DNA of 64,000 nt from an uncultured bacterium. Its GTDB lineage: Bacteria > Patescibacteriota > Minisyncoccia > UBA6257 > GWB1-50-10. Of the stretch, positions 15,373 to 57,617 are shown piece after piece (the stretch's first letter is position 1; every line of letters begins with the position of its first letter). The position numbers and the translations under genes are program-made. The DNA is taken from positions 8,230 to 72,229 of the forward strand of contig CAVYJB010000002.1 in assembly GCA_963768835.1 (NCBI GenBank). The letters are read 5' to 3'. A model generated the notes under the pieces. The model was not told the origin of the DNA and made no database searches. It was given only the letters and a program-made list of their open reading frames with translations.

Positions 15373-15391
15373 AACTAGTTGCTTACAAAGC

Positions 15392-15420: not shown

Positions 15421-15505
15421 AGCCCTCAAAATAATCTAGAGATACTCTGGGTTATTTTTTTAACCCCGGTTGGACGTCAGAACTAATGACCTGTAAGATT
15501 CAAAT

Positions 15506-16066: not shown

Positions 16067-16072
16067 CGTATA

Positions 16073-16648: not shown

Positions 16649-16677
16649 CGAGAGATCTTCCTTGATTCGATACCAAT

Positions 16678-16706
16678 CCACCGTTCCAAGCGCGTCCCGC
16701 AAGGGG
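16678..16706 (+). repeat. 29-bp direct repeat copy 2 (CCACCGTTCCAAGCGCGTCCCGCAAGGGG)
   Basis: matches 15392-15420; abuts metG stop codon. Confidence 0.8.
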
Positions 16707-16710
16707 GGTG

Positions 16711-18177: not shown

Positions 18178-18187
18178 CGGAAGGGCG

Positions 18188-19210
18188 CTAGATACCGAGG
18201 GCCGGCCGCTGGCTCTTCCGTTCCGACATCCGCTCAAATACCTCCTGCGCGAGAACGGCGACCGGCACCGCGAGGATCACGCCGATCAGCCCCCCGACGT
18301 GCGCCCCGGCGAGGACCGCGACAACCACGATCACGGGGTGCACCCGCATCGTGCGCCCCATGACGAGAGGCACGAGAATGTGATTCTCCAGCTGGTGCGC
18401 GAGGAAGGAGAACAGCACGACGTAGAGGCCGAGCGAGAACGACTGCCCCAGGGCCACCGCGAAGGCCACGGCGCCCGTGATGATGGGCCCGATGATAGGA
18501 ACGAGCTCGAAGGCGGCTCCGAGGACGCCGAGGACGAGCGGATACTGCACGCCCATCGCCCAGAGTCCGAGGCCGAAGACGAGCCCCATGATGGCGGAGA
18601 GCGCGAGCTGGGCGCCGAGCCACCGGCGGATCTTCAGCTTGAAGCGGTCGAAGACGCGGAGCACCATCTCCTCGTACGCGCTCGGGAGAATGCCCCGCAG
18701 GAGCCGGTCCGTGCCGTCATGGTCGACGGTGAGATAGAAGGAGATCATGATCGTCGCGATCACGAGAAGCAGCTGTGAGAAAAACCCGGCGATGGCGCCC
18801 GTGATCGAGAAGTTCGGGGAGGAAAAGAAATTCAGGGCGTCGGTAAAGGACATCGAGAAATTCTGCGAGACGGCGGCGGGGATGTTCAGCGCTGAGAGCG
18901 ACGCGAGGATGCGGTTCACCAAGGCCGCGAATCCGCCGAGCTCGATCGCGACGACCGGAATGACGAAATAGACGATAGCCGAGAGCACGATGAGCGCCGT
19001 GAGGAAAATGAGAAGCGTCCCTAGGATGCGCGGGATCTTGCGCGCCTCGAGCGCGCTCACGACCGGGTCGAACCCCAGGGAGAGCACGACGCCGATCAGA
19101 AGGACGCCCACCACCTGTCGCGCGAGGTAGAACACCACGACGAGGAGAAAGAGCATAAGGGTGCGCCACAACGTGGCCCACCCGATATTGATATTGATCC
19201 AGTCCTTCAT
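18188..19210 (-). CDS. AI-2E family transporter (PerM-like permease)
   Basis: 8 predicted TM segments; overall AI-2E topology; start overlaps upstream M16 gene stop (ATGA). Confidence 0.7.
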   Translation of the reverse strand: MKDWININIGWATLWRTLMLFLLVVVFYLARQVVGVLLIGVVLSLGFDPVVSALEARKIPRILGTLLIFLTALIVLSAIVYFVIPVVAIELGGFAALVNRILASLSALNIPAAVSQNFSMSFTDALNFFSSPNFSITGAIAGFFSQLLLVIATIMISFYLTVDHDGTDRLLRGILPSAYEEMVLRVFDRFKLKIRRWLGAQLALSAIMGLVFGLGLWAMGVQYPLVLGVLGAAFELVPIIGPIITGAVAFAVALGQSFSLGLYVVLFSFLAHQLENHILVPLVMGRTMRVHPVIVVVAVLAGAHVGGLIGVILAVPVAVLAQEVFERMSERKSQRPALGI

Positions 19211-40920: not shown

Positions 40921-40955
40921 ACAAAAAGGCCCTCCGATTCCGAAGAATCGGGAGG
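40921..40955 (-). terminator. intrinsic terminator ending the cassette array
   Basis: 13-bp near-perfect hairpin ggcctcccgattc/gaatcgggagggcc, then TTTTTGTT on minus strand. Confidence 0.7.
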
Positions 40956-40984
40956 CCTTAAACCCTTCTTTATAAGGTTGGTTA

Positions 40985-41305
40985 TTAGCGAAAATCCCTC
41001 CTCGAGCGCGCGATTGATAATGCCATGTAAAACGAGGCGGCAAGTCCGAGTACCACAACGAACAGCCGTCCAGTAAGGGAAATAGGCGTGGACGTGGATA
41101 CGGAAATATAATGCACAAGTGAGAGCGTAGCACAAAGGCAGGCCAGGAGGAGTACAACGAGGGTAGCCCGGAGTGTCCCTCTCAGGTTCCGGTTGCACAC
41201 CGACTGTGGGGTCAGCGGATCCAACGAAATGAATAACCCTACGGTTATTACGAGAAATGCCACCGCGAAGAATAGAACACTGAGTAGTTCGGCATATTCC
41301 AACAT
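40985..41305 (-). CDS. small membrane protein, cassette 1
   Basis: 3 TM helices; SD GGAAGGAG; preceded by repeat A. Confidence 0.5.
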   Translation of the reverse strand: MLEYAELLSVLFFAVAFLVITVGLFISLDPLTPQSVCNRNLRGTLRATLVVLLLACLCATLSLVHYISVSTSTPISLTGRLFVVVLGLAASFYMALSIARSRRDFR

Positions 41306-41360
41306 GTGTCTACTTCTCCTTCCGGTTCTTGTGATTGGGCCAGTGAGAAATGACTGGACA

Positions 41361-41428
41361 CAACCTAACACTCGTCGTACTAACCTGTCAATCTCCGGGG
41401 TCCCCTAGTGGAGGGTGGTAGAACCTGT
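41361..41428 (-). repeat. array repeat A (promoter TTGACA-N18-TGtTAGGTT plus conserved upstream segment)
   Basis: shares ggggtcccctagtggagggtg(g/t)tagaacctgt with copies B, C, D. Confidence 0.7.
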
Positions 41429-41453
41429 GTGGGGGCTTAGAAACATTTCCACG

Positions 41454-41490
41454 ACAAGAAAAAGAGCCAGTCCGCATTGCGAACTGGCCC
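41454..41490 (-). terminator. intrinsic terminator of cassette 2
   Basis: hairpin agagccagt...actggccct then TTTTTCTT on minus strand. Confidence 0.5.
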
Positions 41491-41515
41491 TCTTGGACCG
41501 TGATACCCATGAACC

Positions 41516-41830
41516 TTAGGCAAGAAAGACGGACAGCTTCCCTAGGAGAGCTCGTATGTCCTGTTCTCCAGTGGATGTCACCAATGTATCCTTGTAGAAA
41601 CACAGATGTCCGTGCTCTTCGCAAAACTTGCCGAGCAGTTTCCAGTCGTAGTCCAAAATACTGGACGCACGGACTATCGCGGGTTCATCTTTTGGGAGAC
41701 CCTCGATGGTTCCATCCCACCACTGCGCTTCCAGACGCACGTCTAGTCTTTCGAGTTCCTCGAAGAGTGCAGGCGAAAAGGCCGCTGAGCTCTCGAGCGT
41801 GACGTAGTATGGAAACATGAATACTTTCAT
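41516..41830 (-). CDS. hypothetical 104-aa protein, cassette 2
   Basis: SD AAGGAGG; no motifs. Confidence 0.5.
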   Translation of the reverse strand: MKVFMFPYYVTLESSAAFSPALFEELERLDVRLEAQWWDGTIEGLPKDEPAIVRASSILDYDWKLLGKFCEEHGHLCFYKDTLVTSTGEQDIRALLGKLSVFLA

Positions 41831-41866
41831 ATCTTCCTCCTTGTTAAATGACGTAAGGCTGAAAGC

Positions 41867-41950
41867 AAGCTAGCACTCATTGTGCTAGTTCGTCAATCTG
41901 AGACTCGTCCGTCGGAGTTGGGTCCCCTAGTGAAGGGTGTTAGAACCTGT
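41867..41950 (-). repeat. array repeat B (promoter TTGACG-N18-TGcTAGCTT; spacer forms palindrome CTAGCAC-N5-GTGCTAG)
   Basis: best-conserved copy; begins 37 nt upstream of the ATG. Confidence 0.75.
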
Positions 41951-41957
41951 TTTAGGC

Positions 41958-41989
41958 TAAGTATAAAGGGCCCAGCAAATGCTGAGCCC
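41958..41989 (-). terminator. intrinsic terminator of cassette 3
   Basis: gggctcagc-attt-gctgggccc then TTTATACTT on minus strand. Confidence 0.5.
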
Positions 41990-42091
41990 TAACTCGTGGC
42001 CATTGGCCTTCAGACTACTCGTGTCAGCCCGCACGCCTCAGTTGCACATTCTTGCGCTCTGCTTTCTGCTTTAACCATTTCTTCGTCACGA

Positions 42092-42379
42092 CTAACCCCA
42101 TCTCCTTAACCAGTCGCTTGGAATCTGCCTCTGGTAGGGTCGACAGGACGCCACAGCCCGTACAGGACCGTTCCCTTCCTCTGGATCATCAACGCGCACG
42201 AGAGCACCGACAGACCAGAAGATGAGATTGTTAGGTCCGGAATCGATATTATGTACGGAGGTCGTGACTTTCCTTCTTTTCTTGCACACAGGACATTCAA
42301 GCAGTGCCTTCACGCCGAAATATACTTCAATCGCGCTGCCAGCTCCTGTCACGTACGGCTTCCAACTCAAGAGTTTCAT
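42092..42379 (-). CDS. hypothetical 95-aa protein with CPVC motif, cassette 3
   Basis: SD AGGAAGGAG before MKLLSWKPYV; ORF-track start 42418 lies inside repeat C. Confidence 0.5.
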   Translation of the reverse strand: MKLLSWKPYVTGAGSAIEVYFGVKALLECPVCKKRRKVTTSVHNIDSGPNNLIFWSVGALVRVDDPEEGNGPVRAVASCRPYQRQIPSDWLRRWG

Positions 42380-42416
42380 TCCGTACTCCTTCCTGATTAT
42401 GAGTAATACTGAAGAC

Positions 42417-42501
42417 AAGCTAGTACTTATTGTGTTAGTCCGTCAATCGAAGACCTCATCCGTTGGGTTTGAGTCCTTTAGTGGAGGATGTTAGAACCTG
42501 T
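42417..42501 (-). repeat. array repeat C (promoter TTGACG-N18-TAcTAGCTT)
   Basis: about 80% identical to B. Confidence 0.7.
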
Positions 42502-42516
42502 GTGGTAGCGATAGAA

Positions 42517-42548
42517 CAATTTAAAAGCCACCCAGTGAATTGGGCGGC
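42517..42548 (-). terminator. intrinsic terminator of cassette 4
   Basis: gccgccca-attcact-gggtggc then TTTTAAATTGTT on minus strand. Confidence 0.55.
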
Positions 42549-42606
42549 TTAATACAATAGGCACTGAATCCGGTGGCTCTTTGGGATCCGTGAGGTTCGC
42601 GTGTAG

Positions 42607-42855
42607 CTACGGAGGAAAGTTTGACCCCGTGAGATTTCGCGGCTGATCGAATCGTTTCAGAAACTCTTCCAGATTCATGTCGTCGCCGATAAGGCCGGGC
42701 GCCCACCCGAAGGGATGGGGGTCAGCCACCATCAGCTTGTCGAACTCCGCTTGGGTAAGAATTCTTTCCGGTTCGCTCATTTGATGGCTACCGGCTCCGA
42801 CAAAAGGAAAGCCGACCATGAGCTCCTCGTTGACGTAGAACACGTCAGAATTCAT
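42607..42855 (-). CDS. hypothetical 82-aa protein, cassette 4 (second gene)
   Basis: 4-nt overlap with upstream ORF. Confidence 0.45.
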   Translation of the reverse strand: MNSDVFYVNEELMVGFPFVGAGSHQMSEPERILTQAEFDKLMVADPHPFGWAPGLIGDDMNLEEFLKRFDQPRNLTGSNFPP

Positions 42856-43085
42856 TCTGAACGGCGCGGAGAGAGAGTCTCCCAGACTTTTTTGAGAAGG
42901 TTGGGTTCAAGGGTGAACACCATGCGTTCCTCTTCTCGAACAATGGCAGGGAAAGAACCCATAAGACCGTGGACGAGCTCGAGGTAGTAGACTGCCTTGA
43001 GCTGGTATCCCGGCGTCTTCTCGGCGAACAGCTGCTCGAGATTCTTCGGCACTCCCGGAATCGGATTTCTGTTTCGTTGCGGCAT
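42852..43085 (-). CDS. hypothetical 77-aa protein, cassette 4 (first gene)
   Basis: SD AAGGAGGT; follows repeat D. Confidence 0.45.
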   Translation of the reverse strand: MPQRNRNPIPGVPKNLEQLFAEKTPGYQLKAVYYLELVHGLMGSFPAIVREEERMVFTLEPNLLKKVWETLSPRRSE

Positions 43086-43133
43086 ATATACCTCCTTGTA
43101 AAGTGGAAGTTGTTCTGGATACAGCTGCTCACC

Positions 43134-43208
43134 ATACTAGCTGCCTTCTGAAGAATGTAAAGCTGTCCGTCGGGTCTGGGTCCCCTAGTGGAGGACGTTA
43201 GAACCTGT
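43134..43208 (-). repeat. array repeat D (diverged promoter TTTACA-N16-TAGTAT; conserved upstream segment)
   Basis: retains gggtcccctagtggaggacgttagaacctgt. Confidence 0.65.
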
Positions 43209-43338
43209 TTGGGGTAAAGAAAGAGCGGCCCTTTGTGGGGACTGCCCTGAAAGCAGCGTCTCGCTTCAGTCGTTCAGCGTGTAATACTGCGTATAAGGAG
43301 CTCGGCTCGTCCGACAACGCATCCTCGTGTCCCACCCA

Positions 43339-43722
43339 TTAGGTTAGCCGACGTCGCACGAATCCGACGCTCTTCACCCGATAGTCGGGCGCGACATCAC
43401 GCTCGGGATCGTTCTCAGAAAAATCGATCTCGATCTTCCGCCCGTCGGGATATCCTCTATCGAAAAGGTGTTCGTTCAGACGTACTAGACCCTCGTAGGC
43501 TGGAGTGCAGTCCTCCATCACCCAATGCAGAAGACCGGTATCATCTTCTAAGAGCGGCTCTTCCGGGGTTAGCTTCGAGAACGTTAACTCCCTAATCTCG
43601 GGAATGGTGTGGACTTCCACGTACTTACCAATGAGAAGATCAATTACTTTCTCGGTCAACACATCGCTTCCCTGAAGCTTGTCCAGGAAGAATACGTAGG
43701 GCGTCCGGTACTCATCCAGCAA
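43339..43722 (-). CDS. hypothetical 127-aa protein, cassette 5 (second gene)
   Basis: ORF only. Confidence 0.45.
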   Translation of the reverse strand: MLDEYRTPYVFFLDKLQGSDVLTEKVIDLLIGKYVEVHTIPEIRELTFSKLTPEEPLLEDDTGLLHWVMEDCTPAYEGLVRLNEHLFDRGYPDGRKIEIDFSENDPERDVAPDYRVKSVGFVRRRLT

Positions 43723-43780
43723 TGCCTTCTGCCCCTCTTCTCCTATCCGCTCGGAACCGAGGATTTCCTTTCGCGCATCC

Positions 43781-44245
43781 TTAATCTGGGGATGCGTTCA
43801 GGAAATTATCTCGCAATTCGAAACCGCTCCCGAAACGGTCGGTCAGGTGAACTAGTAATTTGAAGGAGATCTCCGCCGTGCAGATGTTCCATGCGAGCAC
43901 GAGCGGCCCTGAATATACGTTGGGTTCCTCCGTCTCGACCTGAGTAAAAAATGGGCAAGTAGAAGAACTTGCCGATCCGCTCATACATCCTCCCGGCGAC
44001 CGGTAGAAGAACCTGAAGAGCTGGTCCTTCACGTCCGCATTGTTGAACAAGGGAGTAAGTGCGGCATGCGCTTCTGCAAGCAGGCGAGAGAGCGATTCTA
44101 CCGCAAACAGGACATTTTTCAGAAGTGCCCGCCTTTCCTTGTTCCAGAGAATCTGTTCCTTCCTTGCCTTGCTGGAGAGTCCCCGTAACGCCGTCTGTAC
44201 CCTCTCCTCGATCAAGGCTCCCGACGCCGGAACTGTTGTTGTCAT
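43781..44245 (-). CDS. hypothetical 154-aa protein, cassette 5 (first gene)
   Basis: SD AAAGGAG; follows repeat G. Confidence 0.45.
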   Translation of the reverse strand: MTTTVPASGALIEERVQTALRGLSSKARKEQILWNKERRALLKNVLFAVESLSRLLAEAHAALTPLFNNADVKDQLFRFFYRSPGGCMSGSASSSTCPFFTQVETEEPNVYSGPLVLAWNICTAEISFKLLVHLTDRFGSGFELRDNFLNASPD

Positions 44246-44292
44246 CGCCCGACTCCTTTCAGTGATATGTGTGATGTAATGCTGCTACTACG

Positions 44293-44356
44293 AACCTAGC
44301 ACCTAACGTATCCATCGGTCAAACTCTTCAATGAAAGGTTTGGTTCTCCCCTCAGG
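44293..44356 (-). repeat. array repeat G (promoter TTGACC-N18-TGcTAGGTT; T-arm-like part replaced by a terminator)
   Basis: retains cctgaggggagaaccaaacc similar to cactaggggacccaactcc. Confidence 0.55.
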
Positions 44357-44357
44357 G

Positions 44358-44388
44358 ATATATAAAAGCCGCTGGGGGTACCAGCGGC
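44358..44388 (-). terminator. intrinsic terminator of cassette 6
   Basis: gccgctgg-tacccc-cagcggc then TTTTATATAT on minus strand. Confidence 0.6.
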
Positions 44389-44391
44389 GTC

Positions 44392-44610
44392 TTAGTGTTC
44401 CGGCATTTTCAATGGTACGTCAATGATGCATTGAGTCATCGGTAATGCGATCCTGGAGCTCATGAATCGCCCTCCGACACTCGGGAGAACACGCATCAAA
44501 CTCCTCCATGGTGAACCGGAGAAGCCAAGGATTGCCTTCTCCATCGGCATGCCTTCTCCCCGTGTCTTGTAGTGACGGCAATCCCTGTTATCGCACATAA
44601 AACGCTCCAC
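44392..44610 (-). CDS. hypothetical 72-aa Cys-containing protein, cassette 6
   Basis: GTG start with SD GGAAGG. Confidence 0.4.
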   Translation of the reverse strand: MERFMCDNRDCRHYKTRGEGMPMEKAILGFSGSPWRSLMRVLPSVGGRFMSSRIALPMTQCIIDVPLKMPEH

Positions 44611-44691
44611 GACCTTCCCGTGCTCAACGATGTAATATTTGATGGTACACCTCTGTCAGTGTTAGGGTTGTTGGATATTTGTTCTAACAAG

Positions 44692-44735
44692 AAGCTAGCA
44701 CTCGTCGTGCCAGTTCGTCAAACAGTTGGTCCCCC
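44692..44735 (-). repeat. array repeat E (promoter TTGACG-N18-TGcTAGCTT; upstream part truncated)
   Basis: agctagcactcgtcgtgccagttcgtcaa matches B. Confidence 0.65.
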
Positions 44736-44928
44736 CAAGCTACCCAAAATACTTTTCTAATACATCAAAGTAATCGCTCCCGTCGTCCACTTCCTTATAG
44801 TCTTTCCTGTCCACCCATCGAAATCTATCGTGCTCGTCGCTCAACCTTAATGCGCCAGAGATATATTTGCACCTAAGCGCCACGAGATAGACCTCTTTCC
44901 CGTAGTTCCTATGACCCTCAGGGAACTC

Positions 44929-44972
44929 CCGTCCGTCGGAGTTGGGTGGGTAACGGGATTCGAACCTCCTTC
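44929..44972 (-). repeat. tRNA 3'-end-like remnant (T-loop GGTTCGAATCC + GTTACCCACC), possible att-site relic
   Basis: exact GGTTCGAATCC 11-mer on minus strand followed by acceptor-like GTTACCCACC; no matching 5' acceptor strand, so not an intact tRNA. Confidence 0.5.
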
Positions 44973-44975
44973 AGG

Positions 44976-45009
44976 AGTATACAAGACGACCCTGAAGAAT
45001 CAGGGTCGT
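44976..45009 (-). terminator. intrinsic terminator downstream of hppA
   Basis: 9-bp stem acgaccctg/cagggtcgt, loop ATTCTT, then CTTGTAT on minus strand. Confidence 0.5.
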
Positions 45010-45041: not shown

Positions 45042-47462
45042 CTATTCCTCCTTGATGCGCATCCGGTAGAACGAGCGCCAGACGAAGATCGACCGCGATG
45101 GCGAAAAAGACCGCCGCCATGATCGCGGAGGTCCCGCGCGGGAGCTGATGGCGAGCTCGACGGCCAGGAGCCCGAAGAGCGTCGTGAACTTGATGACGGG
45201 GTTCATCGCCACCGAGGAGGTGTCCTTGAAGGGATCGCCCACGGTGTCGCCCACGACCGTCGCCGCATGGAGCTCGGTGCCCTTCTCCTTGAGCTCGGTC
45301 TCCACGAGCTTCTTCGCGTTGTCCCAGGCGCCGCCGGCGTTGGCCATGAAGATGGCCTGGTAGAGGCCGAAGAGGGCGATGGAGATGAGGTAGCCGATGA
45401 AGAAGTAAGGGTCGAGGCAGGCGAAGGCGAGGGTGGAGAAGAAGACGGCGAGGAAGATGTTGAACATCCCCTTCTGCGCGAACTGCGTGCAGATCTCGAC
45501 GACCTGCTTGGAGTCGGCGACCGAGGCCTTGTCGCTCGACTCGAGCTTGATGTTCTTCTTGATGAACTCCACGGCGCGGTACGCGCCCGCGACGACGGCC
45601 TGCAAGGACGCGCCCGTAAACCAGTAGATGACCGCGCCGCCCGTGATGAGGCCCAGCAGGAACGGCGGGTTGCAGGATGCGAAAGGTTCGAGACGAGGTC
45701 CGCCTGGAGCCCCTTTGTGAGGAGCATGGATGATGGAGAAGATCAGGGTCGTCGCGCCCACCACGGCGGTGCCGATGAGGACCGGCTTCGCGGTCGCCTT
45801 GAAGGTGTTTCCCGCGCCGTCGTTCTCCTCGAGGAACATCTTGGCCGCTCGAAATCCGGCTCAAACCCGAACTCCCTCTGCATCTCCGCCTTCGCGCCCG
45901 GGAGCGTCTCGATGATGCGAGAGCTCGTAGATGGACTGGGCGTTGTCCGTCACCGGGCCGTAGGAGTCCACCGCGATCGTCACGGGCCCGATGCCCAGGA
46001 ACCCGAAGGCCACGAGGCCGAAGGCGAAGACCGCCGGCGCGATCATGATCGAGGCGAACCCCAGCGTGCTGATGCCGTAGGCCACCCCCATGAGGGCGAC
46101 GATCGCGAGCCCCAGCCAGTACGCGCCGAAGTTGCCCGCGGTGAGGCCCGAGAGGATGTTCAGCGACGCGCCGCCTTCCCGCGACGCCGCAGGATCTCCT
46201 CACGTGGCCGGACGAGGTGGAGGTGAAGACTTTCACCAGCTCGGGGATGAGCGCGCCCGCGAGCGTCCCGCAGCTGATGACCGAGGCGAGCTTCCACCAG
46301 AGCGTCCCGTCGCCCAGGCTCGGGATGAGGAGGTAGGATACAGATAGGTCATCGCGATCGAGACGAGGGACGTGAGCCAGACGAGGGACGTGAGCGGCTT
46401 CTCGGAATTCATGGTCGCGGCGTTCTCGTAGCGGGCCTTCGCGGCCGCTTCGTTCAGCCAGTAGGAGCCCGCGCTCGTCACGACCATCATGATGCGCATC
46501 GCGAAGATCCAGACGAGGAGCTGACCTGGGTGACCGCGGACGCCACCGCGAGCAGGATAAAGGTGATGAGGGCGACCCCCGTCACGCCGTACGTTTCGAA
46601 GCCGTCCGCCGTGGGACCTACGGAGTCCCCCGCGTTGTCGCCGGTGCAGTCCGCGATCACGCCGGGGTTGCGGGCGTCATCCTCCTTGATCCGGAAGATG
46701 ATCTTCATGAGGTCCGAGCCGATGTCCGCGATCTTCGTGAAGATGCCGCCCGCCACCCGGAGCGCCGCCGCGCCGAGGGACTCGCCGATGGCGAACCCGA
46801 TGAGGCACGCGCCCGCGAGCTTGCCGGGCACGAAGAGAAGGATGCGAAGCATGATGAGGAGCTCCACGGAGATGAGGAGGGTCCCGACGCTCATCCCGGC
46901 CTGAAGCGGAATGCGGTAGGTGGGATAAGGCTTTCCGCGGAGGCTCGCGAAGGCGGTCCGGGAGTTCGCGAACGTGTTGATGCGCATCCCGAACCACGCC
47001 ACGGAGTAGCTTCCCAGGATGCCGAGGACGCTGAAGGCGAGGATGATAAGGACCCGCGCCGCGCCCATCTGCTCCAGAAACCCGAAGTACACCACGATAA
47101 TGAGCGCCGATGAAGACCTCGAGGATGGCCAGGAACTTTCCCTGCGTCACGAGGTACGTCTTGCACGTCTCGTAGATGAGCTCGGACATCTCCTTCATCG
47201 CGCGGTGCACCGGCAGCGCGCGGATCTTCATGAACATCGTGAGCCCGAAGAGCATGCCGAGGAGACAGACCGCGATCCCGCCGAGAAGGAGCGTGAACCC
47301 GCTCACGCCGAGGAAGGAGACGGTGCTCAGATCGGGAAGGACGATGGATGCCTCGCTCCCGTGCGCCAAGGACGGCAGGAGAAACGCGGCGGCCGTCAGA
47401 ACCGGAGCGCTCCGAAGCGCCCACCGGCGGGACATGATTTTAGAAAATGCGGGGAATTCCAT
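45042..47462 (-). pseudogene. hppA: membrane-bound H+/Na+-translocating pyrophosphatase disrupted by at least 4 frameshifts
   Basis: Five consecutive ORF pieces in different frames carry collinear PPase segments: N-terminus (LPDLSTVSFLGV...), DCTGDNAGDS, DSYGPVTDNAQSIYELS, GDTVGDPFKDTS, C-terminal TMs. Confidence 0.7.
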
Positions 47463-48792: not shown

Positions 48793-48816
48793 AGAGGAGC
48801 GGTCATCAATAAAAAC

Positions 48817-48844
48817 AATATAGCACCCTGGCGACGAAAGTCAA
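48817..48844 (-). promoter_or_regulatory. nusA promoter TTGACT-N16-TGcTATATT
   Basis: read on minus strand. Confidence 0.55.
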
Positions 48845-48867
48845 CTTACCGAGGACCTGAAAGAGGC

Positions 48868-48902
48868 CTGGATTTGGAATAAAAAGGCTGCCGTACGGTA
48901 TC
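48868..48902 (-). terminator. intrinsic terminator after PnuC-like operon
   Basis: 9-bp stem gctgccgta/tacggcagc then CTTTTTATT on minus strand. Confidence 0.6.
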
Positions 48903-48935
48903 ATACGGCAGCTGTTGAGAGAATGGACCTCAGGT

Positions 48936-49440
48936 TCACCGACTTCGAGTCGATGCCCCGACAACCGAGATAAGAGCTGATGCAATCTGGAAATCGGCGA
49001 AGAAGGTTTGGTCTTTGTCGTACCCCACGATGGCCGCGAGCGCATGCGCCACGGCATACAAACCCCATCCAAGCCGGATGTGGCTGTGGGTGAGATAGTA
49101 GGTCCCGATGAGGAGGGTGATGGAAGCGCAGAACTCCACAAACGTCATGAGCCCCACAAAGACAAAATAGGTCAGGGCGAGCATGACAATCCCGATCACC
49201 ACGAAGAGGAACCGCTCGACTGCTGCATTCCCTTCCTTCTTGAGAAATCCGTACCCCATCAGAATAATCAGACCCATCTCGAGCACCGTGAACACGTAGA
49301 GCCCGATCCGGAAGAAGTAGAACACCCCGAGCATCGCCGCGATAGCCCCGAAGAGCCAGCCCACCTTCTTCCCGACAAGAACAAGTGTTTTGTTGACGAA
49401 GAAAATGAGCGCAACCGCGACCTGAAGAACCTGTGTCATA
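48936..49440 (-). CDS. PnuC-like membrane protein (paralog)
   Basis: 6 TM helices; start MTQVLQVAVALIFF; ORF-track start over-extended. Confidence 0.45.
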
Positions 49441-49461
49441 TAACCCCTCTCTTTCTTGGAA

Positions 49462-50040
49462 TTATGGGGATTGATCCTGCGGCGCCCGCTGCATCCAGAA
49501 CTTTCGCGATGTAAATACCACAATAATGAGACAAAGAATGAAGCATGAGGCCGGGTAGAACCGCTCTTCGACTGACCAGTCCTTGCCACCGAAAGTCGAA
49601 AGGATATTCGCGACGGTGTAGCCGAGATATATGAAGAACGACTGTTCCCACGGTCTCCGGTACGACTCGACAGTTAACGGTATTCCGGCGATAACCATCG
49701 CCAGAGTGCTCGCGATCGTCGCTGTCCAAGGACCCGAGATGCCCCACACAACAAGGCAGATCACCACGAAACACGCCACCATCGTTTCAAACCACGTCCA
49801 TGCAAAATTCTTCGATCTCAGGATCGAGAGCGTCACCGCGGCGCTCCCCAGAGAATATATTGCGGGGAGCAGGTAATTGCCGCCCTGAATGATTATCGTT
49901 GTCGCAGCGATCGCGTCGATCATTGCCCAAAGCGCCCACGTGGCGAAGTTCTGCTTCGATTTGCCCGTGAGGACCTGGAAGCAAAGAAAGAAGTAAATCA
50001 GGATAGCGACAACCGCCCCTGCTTCGGACAGTGTGCTCAC
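49462..50040 (-). CDS. PnuC-like membrane protein (paralog)
   Basis: 6-7 TM helices; GTG start with SD AAAGGAGG; promoter at 50111-50139. Confidence 0.45.
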   Translation of the reverse strand: MSTLSEAGAVVAILIYFFLCFQVLTGKSKQNFATWALWAMIDAIAATTIIIQGGNYLLPAIYSLGSAAVTLSILRSKNFAWTWFETMVACFVVICLVVWGISGPWTATIASTLAMVIAGIPLTVESYRRPWEQSFFIYLGYTVANILSTFGGKDWSVEERFYPASCFILCLIIVVFTSRKFWMQRAPQDQSP

Positions 50041-50110
50041 CTTGCGCCTCCTTTTCCGGCTTAGTTTATGCTCGTTTTTCTAGATTGCGATTGTTCAGTT
50101 TCTGATAAAA

Positions 50111-50139
50111 AATATAGCACTTTCGTGCTATATTGTCAA
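50111..50139 (-). promoter_or_regulatory. promoter TTGACA-N17-TGcTATATT whose spacer forms palindrome ATATAGCAC-N4-GTGCTATAT
   Basis: read on minus strand; same architecture as array repeat B. Confidence 0.6.
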
Positions 50140-50156
50140 TATCCCGGCTCATCCAC

Positions 50157-50531
50157 TCAGGCGAGCTTTTTTAGGCACGCATCCAGCAAATCCACCTTCT
50201 CAGCACTCAAGCTATCACTCATATACCTTACATATTGGGGGAGAAGCTCTTTGAAGATGCCCCGCGTCATCGTCCGGTACTCCTCTACGCTATGGAGATT
50301 CTTCAGTTTTTCTCTGATCTTAGCCACCATGGGGTGCTGCGGGTCGTTGATCTTGGAGCCTTCGTTCGCAATAAATTCCTGGTCCTCGCGTGAGAGCTCA
50401 TGCTGGGTCAACCGCAGGACCTCCATCGCGATCTTCTTCTGAAAATCCAAAAGCGCTTTTTTCTTTTCCTCCTCAGAAAAGTCCAGGATTGAGAAAACTT
50501 CTAGCAAGATTTTCTTCGTTTCCTCATCCAT
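50157..50531 (-). CDS. hypothetical 124-aa acidic/lysine-rich protein (low GC)
   Basis: ORF only. Confidence 0.4.
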   Translation of the reverse strand: MDEETKKILLEVFSILDFSEEEKKKALLDFQKKIAMEVLRLTQHELSREDQEFIANEGSKINDPQHPMVAKIREKLKNLHSVEEYRTMTRGIFKELLPQYVRYMSDSLSAEKVDLLDACLKKLA

Positions 50532-50879
50532 AAATTCAAGAGGGGTTCAGTTCTTATTCAAAGAGAAAATCGAGTAGGAGCAACGGGAGAAGCGTAATCC
50601 CTATAATCAATTCCCAGCTTTCGTGGCGGCTGGCACTTCCTTTTTCGTGTTTGCTGGCCATGGTTTAACATCGAAATTATAGCATTTTTGGGGTCCAGTT
50701 CCTCGGTTCCACCAAATCCAACGGACGGACTACCATCACTCGTTGTTTAGCGAGAGCCTCAGTGGCTCAGCCGACTATGATTGACTTATTATATAAAAAG
50801 TGCTAGAATGTCGCCAGCTATATTGAGAAATATATACTGTTGTATTATCCATTCACTTTACTACAGGAAGGAGTCAGCA

Positions 50880-52148
50880 ATGGGAGAAACTGTTGAATCG
50901 AAGAGTATCGAGCGATCTTCGAGGTTCGCCCCGAACCCGGACATCAAGTTGGTTCTGAACGGCAGCTCGGATATCCTCGACTCCGCGACCATTCCCGTCG
51001 AGTGGCATTTCTCCGACGCGCTTATCGCGAACAACCCCCAATACGTCGTCATCTGCGACCACAGTTATTCCCTGGAGGAGTTCCGGAAGACAGAATACAC
51101 GGATAGCGGTGAGCGGCATCTTTTCAAGGTCCGCGAGCTCATCGGATACATCCAAATCCACAAGGCCGGGCACCACCACCTCGCGCTGCTGGTGTTCTGT
51201 GGGGATCGTGAGGCCGCGCTCGTGTCAGCAATGAACTACGTCAAAAGAGATAGAAACTGGGATTATGCGTATACCCTCTCCTATGACGAGATTGCCAAGG
51301 GCCTTATTGGCTCGGATTGCATGACATCGGCGGTCGAATTCGAGGTGCCGGAAGCGGTCTTCGCGCCAAAGCCGAGATCCGCGTTCGGCCAGCTCATCTG
51401 GGATTGGGTGAACCGCTGGTATTCCGGAACGCCGATTGATGAGTGCCGCTATCGGAAGCGGAAGATCGCGGCGTTCACGATTCAGCCCATCTTCTTCCTT
51501 GTCGGACGCCTTCTCACAGGGGTCTTCGGGACGTTGTATACCCTCCTCGGTTCCGGGGTCCTGTTCTTTTTCGGATGGCGGCCGGTACCGATGTGGAAGA
51601 ATGTCTTCCATGCATGGTGGGACCTCGGCTCGTTCGAGAAGGACCTCCGGCGATACTGGACGTATCGTCTCTGGGAGGACGACGATGACAGCAAGGACAG
51701 GAAGAAACATTGGATGCCCGTGTGGAGCGTTCCGTTTGTTGTCATCTTAGAGCTTGCACTTGCGGGTCTCGTCCTTCTTGTCCTGTATACCATCCTCGTC
51801 TCTATCGGAATACAAACCCTTATCACGGTTGGGATTATTGTCGTATTGGGAGTGACGGCTGGGTGGGCGACCACGAAGTGGGTAGGGTGGTGCAATGTTC
51901 CTGAGCGGCAGGAAGAGCGTCGTGAGCGCAGGGAGAAACGGGAGGAAGTTCGAACTGCGGAGCGTGGGCGCCTGGCGGAGATTGAACGGAAGATGGCGAT
52001 TGCGTTCCTCGCATCGAACGTTTCGCTTGCGACTGCACCGAAGAAGGTGGATGTCGCGGCGGTTCTTCCCAAAGTGGACACGGCGACACGCTTCCGGCTC
52101 AGCTTCTGGGCCACGAAAGCGAAAGTCTGCCGACCGTTCGCGCGGTGA
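50880..52148 (+). CDS. hypothetical membrane protein (about 422 aa)
   Basis: SD AGGAAGGAG before MGETVESKS; soluble N-domain, 4 TM helices, charged coiled C-terminus (ERREKREEVRTAERGRLAEIERK). Confidence 0.5.
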   Translation: MGETVESKSIERSSRFAPNPDIKLVLNGSSDILDSATIPVEWHFSDALIANNPQYVVICDHSYSLEEFRKTEYTDSGERHLFKVRELIGYIQIHKAGHHHLALLVFCGDREAALVSAMNYVKRDRNWDYAYTLSYDEIAKGLIGSDCMTSAVEFEVPEAVFAPKPRSAFGQLIWDWVNRWYSGTPIDECRYRKRKIAAFTIQPIFFLVGRLLTGVFGTLYTLLGSGVLFFFGWRPVPMWKNVFHAWWDLGSFEKDLRRYWTYRLWEDDDDSKDRKKHWMPVWSVPFVVILELALAGLVLLVLYTILVSIGIQTLITVGIIVVLGVTAGWATTKWVGWCNVPERQEERRERREKREEVRTAERGRLAEIERKMAIAFLASNVSLATAPKKVDVAAVLPKVDTATRFRLSFWATKAKVCRPFAR

Positions 52149-52149
52149 G

Positions 52150-52440
52150 AAGGGAATGTTCGTTCCTTGTATCAACCCCCATCTTTTGCGAAAGCAAAGG
52201 ATGGGGCTTTTTATCACCTCCCACAGACGCTGACCTCGTACACCGGGGAACAGAATTGATATAACTTTTGGCTATTTAAAATGTTTCGCGGCAAACAATT
52301 TTAGAAACAAAAAACTGATAAGCTATATTTGACGTGCTTATCAGGTTCTCACAATTTGATAGTGTTTCACATGTTTCACACTATCCTGTCAATAAAATGA
52401 GGTTTTTCAACGTTATCAGGTTTTTCAATATTCCTGGTTT
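52150..52440. repeat. AT-rich intergenic region with short tandem/inverted repeats
   Basis: (C)AGGTTTTTCA x3-4, TGTTTCACA x2, inverted repeat TGATAAGC-N13-GCTTATCA; lies between convergent genes. Confidence 0.5.
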
Positions 52441-52441
52441 T

Positions 52442-53341
52442 TCAGTTTTTCCTGTTTATCCGTTTTAGCAGCTTTTCGACCTCCCGTACCCTCATTTTTA
52501 GATCGCTTTGGAGGGTAGCCCCGACAAAGACCCTGAGGAGGGGTTCCGTATTGGAGGGACGAACGTTCAGGACCCAGCCGCCGAACTCGAGCGTCAGCCC
52601 ATCAATGACGGAGGACCGAACGCTCTTTTTCCCATAGGCGTTGCGGACCTCTTTGATAAGTTTCGATGGGTCCGCCGCTTGGACGTTAAATTGCTCGGAA
52701 TGGAAAGGCGTGGGAAGAAGATCCACGAACGCCGCGAGTCCGTAAGGAAGCCGGGAGACCGCGTTCAGGACGCGCACCGCCGAGAGGATGCCGGAATCCT
52801 GGCCGTAGAACTCCTGGAAATAATAGTGCCCGGAGTACTCCGCGGCCGCGCCGGCGCGTAGCGTCCGCATCTTCCTCTTAATGAAGAAGGAGCCGACCCG
52901 GGAGGGGAAGGTTCGGGGCGCGAGAAGCCCGGCCATCCTCAGCGATTCGTAGGTCAGGATATCGGCGATGAAAGGCGGCCGGCTCTCCATGAAAAGGAGG
53001 TGGGCGATGACATGGCTTGGGACGGGTCGCCCCCGATCGTCCGCGTAAAAGGCCCGGTCCCCGTCCGCATCGAAGACAACCCCGATGTCCGCCCGGTGCT
53101 CTCGCACCTCGCGGGCGAGGCACGCCTGGGCCCTCGGGAGGAGGGGATTCGGCCCGTGCGCCGGGAAGTTGCCGCTCAGGCGCTTGTTCGCGAGAAACAA
53201 CCGGAGGCGGGGATTGCGCGCATAGACTTTGGGAACGATGAGCTCTGTTGGGCCGTTCGAGCAGTCGAAGACGGCGCGCAACGGGCGCCGGAGATCGGCG
53301 AACGTGCGGAGGAACGCGGCGTACCGGTCGGCGTAGGTCAT
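52442..53341 (-). CDS. phosphomannomutase/phosphoglucomutase, domains II-IV (split from domain I)
   Basis: FDADGDR metal-binding loop, SGHYYF, RPSNTEPLLRV sugar/phosphate-binding motifs. Confidence 0.75.
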   Translation of the reverse strand: MTYADRYAAFLRTFADLRRPLRAVFDCSNGPTELIVPKVYARNPRLRLFLANKRLSGNFPAHGPNPLLPRAQACLAREVREHRADIGVVFDADGDRAFYADDRGRPVPSHVIAHLLFMESRPPFIADILTYESLRMAGLLAPRTFPSRVGSFFIKRKMRTLRAGAAAEYSGHYYFQEFYGQDSGILSAVRVLNAVSRLPYGLAAFVDLLPTPFHSEQFNVQAADPSKLIKEVRNAYGKKSVRSSVIDGLTLEFGGWVLNVRPSNTEPLLRVFVGATLQSDLKMRVREVEKLLKRINRKN

Positions 53342-55891: not shown

Positions 55892-56581
55892 ATGCCCACC
55901 GAACAGCCAGAACCCAGAACCTTCACGTCCGTGCTCGGCGATACCCTTCGCGTGAAGGGGATCGGCATCGAGAAGCTCGCGCTCCTGACCGGCATCTCGG
56001 AGCGGTTCCTCGGGCTCCTCGCCGAGGGCAAATACGACAAACTTCCCGCTTCGCCCTACACCCGCGGATATCTTTTAAAGATCAGCGAGGTCCTGGGCAT
56101 CGACGGCGCCGACCTCTGGAAGCTGTTTGTCGCCGAAAATGAAAAGACGCGGAAATCGATGCGGAAGGAGACCGTGCCCGCGAACCGTTTCGAGGGCCGC
56201 CGCCTCGGTTTCCGTACGCTGCTGCTGCTCCTCCTCGGTGTCCTCATCGTGGTATTCGTCGGTATCCGCCTCATCTCCATCCTCGGCGCCCCGCGCCTCG
56301 ATCTCCCGGGCCTCGGCAACCGCACGGTGGTGGAAACAACCTCTACGCTCCTCATCCAAGGTACGGTGGATCCCTCCGCTCAATTGACAGTGAACGGGAC
56401 GGCCGTGTATCCTCAGAGCAATGGTGGGTTTCAGACGGAACTCACGCTCCACCCGGGTTCGAACACGATCGAGTTCCGGGTGAAACGCTTCTTGGGGCAG
56501 GAGTACACGACGACACGGGAGGTTTTCTATCAGGCTCCGAGCACTTCGACTACCGCAACTTCCACGATCAATGGCGCCTAA
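55892..56581 (+). CDS. RodZ-like HTH membrane protein
   Basis: N-terminal HTH_25-like ([22 protein letters not shown]...[16 protein letters not shown]), one TM, C-terminal beta domain. Confidence 0.55.
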
Positions 56582-57617
56582 CAAAAAAGAGAAGGAGAAA
56601 CAGGAAGGAGGCGACCTTGCGTCGCTTATGGAATCGCTTCAGACGCGCTTCGGCGAGGGCGCGGTCATGAAGCTCGGCGAGGGATCCAATGTAAAAGTGG
56701 AGACAGTGCCTTCGGGCTCCTTCTCGCTCGACATCGCGCTCGGCGGCGGGCTTCCTAAGGGCCGCGTCATCGAGATTTTCGGCCCCGAGAGCTCCGGGAA
56801 AACCACGCTGGCACTCCACGCGATCGCCGAGGTGCAGAAGCGCGGAGGAAAGGCGGCCTTCATCGACGCGGAGCATGCCCTGGACCCTGAGTACGCGGCA
56901 CGCATCGGGGTTAAGGTAAAAGATCTCATCGTTTCCCAGCCGGACAACGGAGAGGAGGCGCTGAACATCTTGGAAAGCCTGGTCCGCTCGAACATCATCG
57001 ACATCGTGGTCATAGACTCCGTGGCGGCCCTCACGCCCCGCGCCGAGATCGAGGGGGAGATGGGACAATCCCACGTCGGTCTCCACGCCCGGCTCCTCTC
57101 CCAGGCGCTTCGGAAGCTCACGGCCATCTCCGCGCGTTCCGGCACCATCGTCATCTTCATCAACCAGATCCGAATGAAGATCGGCATCATGTTCGGGAAC
57201 CCTGAGACCACGACGGGCGGGCTCGCCCTCAAGTTCTACTCTTCCGTACGCATCGACATCCGCCGCACGGCGCAGGTGAAGAAGGGGGAGGAAAGCATCG
57301 GGAACCGGGTGAAGGCGAAGGTGGTGAAGAATAAGGTGGCGCCCCCGTTCAAGATCGCGGAGTTCGACATCATGTTCGGACAGGGCATCTCTTACGAAGC
57401 GGACGTGATGAACACCGCCCTGAACTACGGAACCCTGAAGAAAGCGGGCGCAAGCTACAGCTTCGAGGGAGAGAAACTCGGCGTCGGGTTCGACACCGTC
57501 CGCCTGAAGCTCAAGGAGGATCGGAAGCTTCTCGAGATCATCAAGAAAAAAACCATTGAGGCGATCCGCGCCGGCGCGAAGCCGGGAGGAGGGAAGCCGG
57601 AAGAGGAAAAGGAATAA
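56571..57617 (+). CDS. recA: recombinase RecA
   Basis: Walker [10 protein letters not shown], RecA signature (IVIDSVAAL), L1/L2 loops. Confidence 0.95.

Follow-up and report, generated by a model that had tools for sequence, protein, structure and literature searches.

The hppA–murD spacer of this Parcubacteria genome (Patescibacteria, CPR) raises the question of what fills it and how the filling arose. Within the 64,000-nt stretch of DNA analyzed (the window), the spacer measures 4196 nt, compared with ~105 nt in L004, the closest relative keeping nusA–hppA–murD, and 560–800 nt in L009, L006, and L020; the three genes are contiguous in more than 20 relatives. It is filled by a 4.1-kb block (40921–44990) with a GC content of 0.514 as against 0.61–0.64 in the flanks, confirming the low GC first remarked on in the original prediction, and this difference together with the spacer lengths shows that the block is an insertion relative to the relatives. 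The best explanation, in which we place roughly even confidence, is that the block is a horizontally acquired array of small cassettes recombining at tRNA-T-loop-like sites.

The block carries a conserved junction on the minus strand in four full copies (A–D), two partial copies (E and G), and one head copy (F), with a single orientation throughout (7/7). A repeat search of the window yielded two families, one of 47 nt on the distal side (41386–41432, 41908–41954, 42459–42505, and 43166–43212) and one of 30 nt on the promoter side (41362–91, 41867–96, 42417–46, and 44692–721). The repeats are present where they had been predicted and are nonrandom, the 30-nt arm pattern giving three matches at ≤3 mismatches against none in 100 shuffles; their identity had been put at 70–90%, whereas whole-junction identity among A–D was measured at 62–79%. 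Similarity extends over 85–150 nt. The first ~45 nt, here called the arm, correspond to the 3′ part of a tRNA from the T loop to the acceptor end and are often followed by a terminator-like hairpin, as at the end of a tRNA gene itself; the distance from the arm to the −10 box varies from ~15 to 85 nt. Full arms followed by a middle part and a promoter are found in junctions B (41867–41960) and C (42417–42511); 16 nt of the middle part of B are identical to F (the 16-mer CCAACTCCGACGGACG, an exact match), and its promoter contains a CTAGCAC-N5-GTGCTAG palindrome. Junction A (41361–41438) has its arm joined straight to the promoter, the middle part being deleted, and junction D (43134–43218) combines a full arm with a diverged promoter, TTTACA-N16-TAGTAT. 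Junction E (44692–44736) keeps an arm tail remnant, GGGGGGACCAAC, with TTGACG-N18-TGCTAGCTT, and junction G (44293–44357) a 3′ arm, CCCTGAGGGGAGAACC, with TTGACC-N18-TGCTAGGTT and no 5′ arm.

A large part of the promoter side is likely to be shared for ordinary reasons. In the window, nusA and other core genes are likewise preceded by TTGAC-N17/18-(G)TGCTAnnnT, indicating that roughly half of the resemblance on the promoter side is generic and that the promoter half of the junction would largely be this genome's own generic promoter, TTGAC-N17/18-TGCTAnnnT. A consensus scan accepts D alone among the promoters originally proposed; nusA and the other core genes share the architecture of the TTGACG-N18-TGCTAGCTT sites, which keeps these sites credible. 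These matches favor the view that the block is an ordinary gene cluster acquired once, with spacers made alike by promoter consensus and by local duplication or gene conversion, and with a coincidental likeness to tRNA; the uniform GC of the cassettes fits this view as well. Against it, the arm half is absent from every core promoter in the window. An arm HMM finds matches within the window only in three low-GC islands, and no copy lies between core genes in the whole 64 kb. In the second island, a variant junction (15385–15495, plus strand) lies between a Fic gene and Peptidase_S51 and Nudix genes; its arm is CCGTTCCAAGCGCGTCCCACAAGGGGAGCCC, and it also comprises an A-run/hairpin/T-run and a 3′ arm. 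A second copy of the variant arm marks the downstream edge (16671–16713, plus strand). In the third island, an F-like, partly deleted junction (GGTTCCACCAAATCCAACGGACGG … TTGACT-N17-TGCTAGAAT; 50690–50809, plus strand) precedes a 422-aa orphan ORF. The concern that the repeat might be a generic promoter element found genome-wide applies largely to its promoter half, the arm half being island-specific.

The head junction F bears on the origin of the arm. Its arm (44943–44966, minus strand) is a 24-nt fragment of a tRNA-His 3′ end, GGTTCGAATCCCGTTACCCACCCA, which matches the tRNA-His 3′ ends of L018/L032 at 22 of 23 aligned bases, and the ACCCACCC terminus is found in tRNA-His only among 57 tRNAs; to judge from this match, F is a true tRNA-His 3′ end, and the predicted tRNA relationship of the distal repeat half is upheld by a similarity that the ordinary cluster would have to attribute to chance. 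The tRNA similarity begins at the T loop, the 5′ strand of the T stem being absent. Next to the arm, F contains a middle hairpin, AACTCC-N8-GGAGTT, and a 3′ arm, CCCTGAGGGTCATAGGAAC (44905–44942, minus strand), both with homology to the middle of junction B and the 3′ arms found in L001/L002 junctions. The internal arms have TCC(C)TTCAC…ACCC in common with the tRNA-His of L029/L036 and look, on this shared pattern, like altered tRNA-His 3′ ends with the T loop changed to TAACAT. They are not functional tRNA ends, yet the YAACAT change in their T loop is common to His-like and Gln-like arm types, which simple decay does not explain. ARAGORN and Rfam searches detected neither a tRNA nor any known RNA family in the array, and no intact tRNA heads it. 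In the closest relatives, tRNA-His is missing at the hppA–murD locus; among the synteny groups, only a more distant one has it upstream of murD.

The junction family is also present in five other Parcubacteria contigs, as same-orientation arrays between unrelated accessory genes. Among 84 other loci (~1.2 Mb), all arm HMM matches at E < 0.01 fall in the arrays of L001, L002, L047, and L051, and weaker arms are present in L085; orientation is uniform in each array (8/8 in L002, 7/7 in L047). The arm is almost unchanged in other genomes and occupies the same position between unrelated genes. The arrays are hypervariable in gene content: L047 and L051 are collinear and 80–91% identical up to ~13.7 kb, and past this point have only junctions in common and entirely different genes between them, as the variability suggested for such arrays would have it. 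The cargo of one includes Nudix, deaminase, ALDH, and amidase genes, that of the other a SocA/Panacea pair, PNPOx, and xth. Arms flank a DAGK–PAP2 cassette in both L002 and L085, where its surroundings differ. The L051 array starts with a genuine tRNA 3′ fragment, GGTTCGAATCCTAGTCCCCCAGCC, instead of an arm, and here too the tRNA similarity begins exactly at GGTTC, as in F. On a further related contig, an 18-nt repeat of the tRNA-Lys 3′ end lies 190 nt beyond the tRNA-Lys itself, a classic footprint. An ordinary gene cluster, which we consider very improbable, is largely refuted by the arms in the arrays of other genomes, by the complete turnover of content between related genomes, and by tRNA fragments heading two arrays, including the tRNA-His match of F.

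The units in the window are 0.4–1.2 kb in size, all on the minus strand, and their description as seven units of unrelated orphan ORFs was overstated: one contains a split gene, one a frameshifted gene, and one a gene fragment. Adjoining F, 44740–44904 reads by eye as the 3′ fragment of a Nudix-type gene (…GKEVYLVALRCKYISGALRLSDEHDRFRWVD…), an assignment that is tentative given so short a piece; the F junction truncates the fragment, which lacks its own promoter, and a Pfam scan of the 47-aa ORF was negative. The cassette behind E (44368–44650) has two overlapping frames (44392–44610 and 44420–44581), which probably represent one ~95-aa gene with a frame shift, and a terminator at 44368–44388. 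ORFs 43781–44245 and 43339–43722 represent the N-terminal and C-terminal halves of a single protein of a rare ~300–340-aa family (P0003–P0006; 43339–44245), split by single-base frame shifts at short homopolymers; structure prediction, proposed at the outset, gave an AlphaFold2 model of fair confidence (pLDDT 70) with no fold match in the PDB. The next cassettes hold two small ORFs of 77 and 82 aa without a family match (42607–43085), a 95-aa Cys-containing ORF (42092–42379) with a terminator at 41967–41990 (unit 41967–42379), and a 104-aa ORF (41516–41830) whose sole database match is itself. The last unit (40930–41305) encodes a 106-aa membrane ORF (40985–41305) and ends in a strong terminator (40930–40958), after which comes the murD promoter region. 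Terminators had been predicted after each ORF or ORF pair; the scan finds them for three units. Cassette GC is alike throughout the array, a uniformity that would fit a single acquisition event.

Two explanations treat the junction as an element in its own right. It could be a nonautonomous mobile or selfish repeat (a MITE, a REP- or Correia-like element, or a SINE-like tRNA derivative) inserted repeatedly into the permissive spacers of islands whose variability has other causes, its terminators and promoters being a side effect. It is indeed a short intergenic repeat with a terminator-like hairpin and promoter-like boxes; the L001/L002 copies have a short inverted pair, GTTCTA near the 5′ end and TAGAAC in the 3′ arm, and hairpins are inserted within some arms (L001 at 1193, L002 at 1382 and 4164, and L085 at 5938). 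We regard this origin as improbable: MITEs insert both ways, whereas orientation is uniform in each array; 64 kb contain no copy between core genes; the GTTCTA/TAGAAC pairing is lost in L047-type junctions, where TAGAAT is the −10 box; folding predicts the central hairpin alone with confidence; and no target-site duplication is evident. The optional hairpins at fixed points of the arm, reminiscent of structured RNAs, could instead point to a functional RNA or protein-binding regulatory element, such as a 3′-UTR or processing signal mimicking a tRNA minihelix, or to a phage-type RNA polymerase promoter (…CACTAGGGGA resembles T7/T3-type promoters; we take CCTCCACTAAAGGA in copy C to resemble the T3 promoter, as a lead only). 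This is most unlikely, as Rfam gives no match even at E ≤ 1–5, the variable arm tail (GGGG, CCCC, CGCG, and AGGC) shows neither a conserved pairing partner nor compensating changes, and the distance from the arm to the −10 box is not fixed; moreover, the arm in the window is probably not transcribed, being located past the upstream terminator and ahead of the promoter.

Under the favored reading of a recombining cassette array, each cassette is a self-contained transcription unit in which a promoter of the organism's usual type and an SD precede a single gene or small operon that ends in a terminator; the conserved junction joins the cassettes, its first ~45 nt coming from the 3′ part of a tRNA gene. 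The arms would act as attachment-type sites, so that cassettes could be gained, lost, and shuffled by recombination of arm with arm or of arm with a tRNA 3′ end; strand exchange would take place at or next to the conserved T-loop GGTTC, through a recombinase whose gene would lie at another genomic site or on a helper element. The array resembles a small-scale version of the genomic islands that target tRNA genes, with no visible integrase. The insertion, the tRNA-related repeat half, the island-specific arm, and the variable arrays support the original cassette-array prediction; its site-specific component fares less well, as no crossover point was observed and the search for a recombinase gene or tyrosine-recombinase motif found none in the window or in any array locus. 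This lack, that of an intact head tRNA, and that of tRNA-His at the locus in the closest relatives count against the cassette-array reading, as do the YAACAT change shared by two arm types, the uniform cassette GC, and the fact that neither an excision product nor an empty site nor the same cassette at two positions was observed. In textbook islands, the displaced tRNA fragment marks the far end; the genuine fragment here lies at the head, adjoining conserved core genes, which counts against this reading as well.

Because the junctions exceed the usual length of an att core, RecA-dependent exchange could serve equally well, and we see an unlikely but real chance that no dedicated recombinase is involved: the long junctions (arm, terminator, and promoter) would offer portable homology for swapping DNA from relatives in or out, whether through RecA-dependent recombination, Campbell-type integration of circles, or a double crossover following DNA uptake, and the tRNA-like part would be a historical trace of a first island beside a tRNA gene. 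The junctions are well conserved, those of L047 nearly identical to one another by eye; no recombinase is found near any array; and the window contains what we take to be recA (56571–57617), assigned from its ORF translation. Junction modules are also seen in partial combinations (arm only, or hairpin and promoter only), as expected from crossovers at varying points. On the other side, the tRNA similarity starts from the identical T-loop position in two independent head junctions, a constancy of breakpoint that site-specific exchange would more typically produce; the conserved non-tRNA arm core AGGTTCYAACATC is kept across lineages with genomes of 30% to 63% GC, suggesting sequence-specific recognition.

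It had been stated that no described system has this organization. This is too strong, given that tandem arrays delimited by tmRNA or tRNA ends, including integrase-less units, have been reported (PMC3146451; bioRxiv 10.1101/2020.12.28.424599). Correia/NEMIS, REP/BIME, and other MITEs are likewise short intergenic repeats providing hairpins and promoter boxes; they occur genome-wide, in both orientations and with terminal inverted repeats, whereas the junction is restricted to variable islands and always has a single orientation. Integrons and CALINs (attC clusters lacking an integrase) share the arrangement of small, mostly orphan, unrelated genes in the same orientation between conserved repeats; as in integrons, gene content varies between related genomes and a toxin–antitoxin-like cassette is present (in L051), and as in CALINs, no integrase is adjacent. 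We found no integron attC features (R″/R′ AAC…GTT boxes or conserved R/L-box pairing) and no IntI, attI, or Pc, and, unlike in integrons, each cassette in the window has its own promoter and terminator, and the junction is tRNA-derived.

By analogy, the array resembles the tycheposon islands of Prochlorococcus and the ssrA island arrays of Dehalococcoides. In Prochlorococcus, a streamlined genome likewise keeps flexible genes in tRNA-adjoining islands, with partial tRNAs between serially integrated elements, more of them scattered across the island, and cargo that acts like plug-in cassettes (bioRxiv 10.1101/2020.12.28.424599). Tycheposons have tyrosine or serine recombinases, replication modules, and demonstrated excision (bioRxiv 10.1101/2020.12.28.424599), none of which was seen in the window, and the junction in the present array is longer, a composite module that is conserved. 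The Dehalococcoides islands are tandem, ssrA-delimited, and inserted at the T loop, comprising IMEs and integrase-less "cis-mobilizable elements," with about half of the units lacking an integration module (PMC3146451). Shared with the window are the single orientation, borders made of directly repeated 3′ ends of a tRNA-like gene, additional conserved sequence surrounding each repeat, units without an integration module, and low-GC, synteny-breaking, strain-variable regions (PMC3146451). Dehalococcoides has an intact ssrA at the array head and a serine-integrase module in many units, whereas in the window array no intact tRNA is adjacent and no unit carries an integrase. The Dehalococcoides units reach ~10 kb or more against 0.4–1.2 kb here; their repeat is an exact 20-bp copy, whereas the internal repeats of the window array look like altered tRNA ends to which a terminator and promoter have been joined.

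The array occupies a 4.1-kb block on the minus strand (40921–44990) with 51% GC, set in a surrounding genome of 61–64% GC and bounded by the hppA stop codon at 45042 (upper boundary) and the murD ATG at 40845 (lower boundary), both on the minus strand. All relatives of its MurD belong to the Parcubacteria/Paceibacteria group of Patescibacteria, the best at 58% identity, and more than 20 of their loci have nusA, hppA and murD side by side on the same strand. The hppA–murD spacer measures about 105 nt in one comparison locus (L004) and holds one unrelated small ORF in others (L009, L006 and L020); the array thus represents an insertion into this spacer, which is itself a minor variable spot.

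A repeat search recovered one repeat family of 47 nt (41386–41432, 41908–41954, 42459–42505 and 43166–43212) and one of 30 nt (41362–41391, 41867–41896, 42417–42446 and 44692–44721). A 30-nt consensus of the arm, our term for the tRNA-3′-end-like first ~45 nt of a junction, gave three matches at three mismatches or fewer, with none expected in shuffles, and the 16-mer CCAACTCCGACGGACG is exact in junctions B and F. These results locate the direct repeats where they had been listed, at an identity of 62–79% among the whole junctions A–D, somewhat lower than the 70–90% first claimed. Along the minus strand from 5′ to 3′, a complete junction is built of four elements: first the terminator of the preceding unit; then the arm, (C)AAACAGGTTCTAACAYCCTYCACTAGGGGACCC; next a middle part, AACTCCGACGGACG…, forming a hairpin in F, AACTCC-N8-GGAGTT; and last a promoter, TTGACG-N18-TGCTAGCTT, followed by a Shine–Dalgarno sequence and a start codon. 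Junction A is without the middle part, E retains only the tail of the arm, and G has no arm and carries CCCTGAGGGGAGAACC, a "3′ arm" that F and related contigs share.

A generic promoter and terminator scan of the array accepted the D promoter alone, plus three terminators. The architecture TTGAC-N17/18-(G)TGCTAnnnT also lies upstream of nusA (about 48826) and at 36700, 30242, 50120 and 5201, before core and island genes alike; it is therefore the normal extended −10 promoter of the organism, and with its TGC it looks like the housekeeping consensus. As a promoter, this half of the repeat is credible, but in part it is mere consensus.

The origin of the arm was addressed with the tRNAs that ARAGORN called over all fetched loci (n = 57), among which the ending ACCCACCC is unique to tRNA-His. 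The head copy F, whose arm lies at 44943–44966, reads GGTTCGAATCCCGTTACCCACCCA where the tRNA-His of L018 and L032 ends in GGTTCGATTCCCCTTACCCACCC; F is, to judge from this match, a tRNA-His 3′ end. No T-stem continues upstream of its GGTTC, the 5′ strand of the T-stem and everything before it being missing, and neither ARAGORN nor Rfam recognized a tRNA at F. The internal arms have GGTTC…TCC(C)TTCAC…ACCC in common with the tRNA-His of L029 and L036 (GGTTCGATTCCCTTCACCCACCC), with TAACAT where the tRNA has GATT in its T-loop, and with an insertion of TAGGGGA in their acceptor part; they are, on the same kind of comparison, apparently altered, non-functional tRNA-His 3′ ends. A likeness of the arm to tRNA-Glu (CTAGGGGAC) and another to the T7/T3 promoter are leads only; the tRNA-His of related genomes fits better than the tRNA-Glu. 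The intact tRNA with a matching 3′ end that the original prediction had in mind was not found by ARAGORN or Rfam within 17 kb of the array.

Gene order splits the Parcubacteria at this locus. In at least nine more distant members (L018, L021, L026, L027, L029, L030, L032, L036 and L039) tRNA-Arg(TCT) and tRNA-His(GTG) stand immediately upstream of murD and nusA–hppA is absent there; another group has the order nusA–hppA–murD. F could accordingly be imagined as an in situ relic of a tRNA-His that ancestrally preceded murD, which is unlikely given that the window belongs to the nusA–hppA–murD group, tRNA-less at this place. For the same reason F most likely arrived together with the inserted DNA. 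A separate tRNA-linked repeat was seen in L022 (6865–7053), where three tandem 55-nt repeats each open with ~24 nt from the start of the neighboring tRNA-Thr gene and the last continues into the real gene.

Pattern searches with the arm matched only two contigs in metagenome collections, and none in viral contigs and GTDB species genomes or in the phage and plasmid collections. When 84 loci (1.2 Mb) and the window were scanned with an HMM of the arm, all matches at E < 0.01 fell within the arrays of four other Parcubacteria contigs (L001, L002, L047 and L051) and of the window, with no copy among the core genes of the window; further copies exist elsewhere, and those of the window are confined to islands. 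L002 (46% GC) carries eight junction copies in one orientation between unrelated units, including a small membrane protein, TspO, an SPFH protein, an ABC transporter pair, an RCC1-repeat protein and a DAGK + PAP2 pair. Its full copies run arm, A-run/hairpin/T-run, GTACCCCTGAGGGGAAATAGAAC, AGATTTGAGTCCTA; the hairpin part has compensatory changes between copies, and AGATTTGAGTCCTA aligns to the −35 region of the window junctions. The DAGK–PAP2 cassette recurs, arm-flanked and with different neighbors, in L085 (76% amino acid identity); in L086 it adjoins a tRNA-Lys, and the more distant PAP2 contexts L086–L093 showed no arms. About 190 nt beyond that tRNA-Lys(TTT) (L086, 2710–2985), its 3′ end is repeated exactly over 18 nt (ATCCTAGCCGGGGCACCA), with a terminator hairpin after each copy, which looks like a minute trace of integration at a tRNA. 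Upstream of the arm-type junctions of L085 lies a string of very small ORFs (120–1260) with a different short repeat (TAGTGAGTAG…) beginning at each stop codon. In L001 (640–720), a full junction is followed by a promoter-like GCTAGAC that abuts a further terminator hairpin, and only then by the promoter belonging to the next gene, an arrangement that may represent a vacant cassette position.

The arrays of L047 and L051 (30% GC) use AAYAGGTTCCAACATCGTTCCATAGCCCCAGC, AATCGCC-N5-GGCGATT and TTTTTGGTAGAAT, with an ATG about 10 nt further on. The flanks of the two contigs are collinear at 80–91% identity, and from about 13.7 kb on the junctions alone match; the content between them differs entirely. 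The L047 cassettes, read by eye, encode a Cys-rich protein, an M20 peptidase, a Nudix protein, a deoxyribosyltransferase-like protein, a cytidine deaminase, an aldehyde dehydrogenase and an amidase; those of L051 encode membrane proteins, a SocA/Panacea antitoxin with its partner, a PNPOx and an exonuclease III. The L051 array starts in the arm position with GGTTCGAATCCTAGTCCCCCAGCC, a good tRNA 3′ end that looks Gln-like beside Escherichia coli tRNA-Gln; the sequence after it is homologous to an L047 junction, and both in F and in this head fragment the similarity to tRNA starts at GGTTC. At the edge of both arrays (L047, 13578–13700; L051, 13561–13668) is a 93% identical non-coding stretch, with a TTGACA…TATAAT promoter, about 70 nt and a terminator, which may be a small RNA gene.

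The window itself has two more low-GC islands with junction sequence. The second (13860–16715, plus strand, 44% GC) contains Fic, Peptidase_S51 and Nudix genes, the latter two bracketed by variant arms that the HMM found on the plus strand at 15385–15427, after the Fic gene, and at 16671–16713, on the downstream edge by the 3′ end of ORF 16711–18237. In the third (48800–52440, 51% GC), which holds two minus-strand membrane ORFs and a plus-strand 422-aa orphan ORF, a partly deleted F-like junction precedes the orphan ORF at 50.7 kb on the plus strand. An AT-rich stretch at 52240–52470 has four to five copies of (C/T)AGGTTTTTCA and TTATCAGG in both orientations and looks like an iteron-like or replication/partition site; it also contains ATCAGGTTCTCAC, resembling the start of the arm.

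Against Pfam, PHROGs and PADLOC the ORFs of the array gave nothing significant, only sub-threshold noise, and a homolog search with ORF 41516–41830 returned only itself, on an NCBI contig of 551,795 nt. The array of small gene units that had been predicted holds, with an amended gene content. ORF 43781–44245 matches the N-terminal part and ORF 43339–43722 the C-terminal part of proteins of 295–339 aa, an alternative frame (43806–43988) holds the family motif ERIGKFFxLPIF, and by eye three single-base shifts, in runs of G3, T6 and C4, restore one gene (43339–44245). Its family search found five remote relatives; L084, the only one whose context was retrieved, carries no arms, and an AF2 model (pLDDT 70) gave no fold match in the PDB. 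Also by eye, the unit behind E consists of two overlapping reading frames, and the stretch after F is the startless 3′ end of a Nudix-like gene. The neighboring hppA (45042–47462, minus strand) needs at least two frame shifts, near 47090 and near 46523, to align with its ortholog in L004, and its ORF has additional short breaks; taken with the three homopolymer shifts of the split gene, the pattern suggests real decay or else indel errors of a long-read assembly.

The array resembles an integron or CALIN in that at least two same-orientation repeat sites within about 4 kb separate unrelated genes. An integron has an IntI-type tyrosine recombinase beside the array and a CALIN has one elsewhere in the genome; the tyrosine or serine recombinase sought near this array was not found, with no recombinase Pfam match in the scanned proteins of the window (35–53 kb) or of L051, and no HxLRH or LGH…Y motif when the window, L047, L051, L002, L085 and L086 were translated in all six frames. 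The array differs from both systems also in lacking attC features, namely R″(RYYYAAC)-L″…L′-R′(GTTRRRY) with conserved R and L pairing and extrahelical bases. The arm contains TTCTAAC and a GTTRRRY partner is absent downstream; a pairing of GGTTCTA/TAGAAC and CTAGGGG/CCCCT(G)AG can be drawn for the L001 and L002 copies and is absent from the window and L047 types; and DNA folds of the junction supported the central hairpin alone. On the missing GTT box and the non-conserved pairing we rejected an attC reading, and on the missing 11-6-11 dyad, judged by eye, a dif/Xer-like one. Nor does the junction show the signature of a MITE, which would have terminal inverted repeats, a target-site duplication and copies dispersed in both orientations: its orientation is uniform, its copies are island-confined and the only internal inverted pair is one of 6 bp in one subtype. 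No covariance model of Rfam 15 was matched at gathering or permissive thresholds.

Comparative evidence partly bears out the predicted cassette array; its mechanism we infer. Direct repeats like a tRNA 3′ end with a terminator hairpin and with tRNA similarity from the T loop, a single orientation per array, biased composition, broken synteny and complete content turnover between related genomes are together the hallmark of repeated recombination at attachment sites of the tRNA type. Because the same is seen in the islands of Dehalococcoides, and Prochlorococcus islands show serial integration at tRNAs, we read the window block, at roughly even odds, as a miniature, integrase-less version of a tRNA-delimited island array. 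Each unit would be a cassette carrying its own leader (arm tail, terminator and promoter) and ending in …CAAACAGGTTC, with exchange at or beside GGTTC catalyzed in trans. Our confidence stops there because of four misfits. A genuine tRNA fragment stands at the array head beside core genes without an intact tRNA, and a recombinase was not found. The T-loop change YAACAT, which is not that of a tRNA, is common to His-like and Gln-like internal arms, suggesting a recognition sequence rather than decay. Finally, the length of the junctions suffices for RecA-dependent exchange between them, which is the main rival to attachment-site recombination. A more doubtful possibility is an undescribed, integron-like capture system of Patescibacteria, in which single-gene cassettes with a terminator–promoter leader would be inserted and cut out at pseudo-tRNA sites with a modified T-loop by an unlinked recombinase acting in trans. 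If so, these genomes would have hypervariable arrays at several chromosomal loci, with cassettes moving between lineages of very different GC content; arms serving as substrates of a trans-acting recombinase would make the system a functional analog of integrons with a different site chemistry.

The genomes of CPR/Patescibacteria are tiny, most members have not been cultured, and little is known of how they gain genes. A junction recognizable by its sequence and marking exchangeable accessory genes would offer a simple handle in metagenomes on their flexible gene pool, and the arm would be a concrete site for pairing with a recombinase through co-occurrence analysis.

Islands of the Islander type at tRNA or tmRNA genes have a regenerated intact tRNA at one end, a displaced 3′ fragment of that tRNA as a direct repeat at the boundary and an internal integrase (PMC4383910). 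The window array differs from these in that neither a regenerated intact tRNA at one end nor an integrase gene inside it was found. It does have a genuine tRNA-His 3′ fragment (F) and four altered copies in direct orientation; F, however, is at the array head rather than at the far end, and its parent gene is absent. Closer would be the cis-mobilizable elements and accretion arrays discussed in PMC3146451, tandem units between att-type repeats and free of integration or transfer genes: the units of the window array are likewise in tandem, no such genes were found in them, and the repeats between them are putative att sites. The original prediction that no described system has this organization was too strong, since tRNA/tmRNA-delimited tandem island arrays and cassette arrays have been described: Dehalococcoides has tandem ssrA-delimited islands from serial recombination at tRNA-type attachment sites (PMC3146451), and Prochlorococcus islands arose by serial integration at tRNAs and have scattered partial tRNAs (bioRxiv 10.1101/2020.12.28.424599). 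The Patescibacteria array would be a third independent case of streamlined genomes concentrating variability in tRNA-linked arrays, distinctive in having no linked integrase found, in its single-gene units with self-contained expression signals and in a composite tRNA-derived junction that recurs across Parcubacteria of very different GC content.
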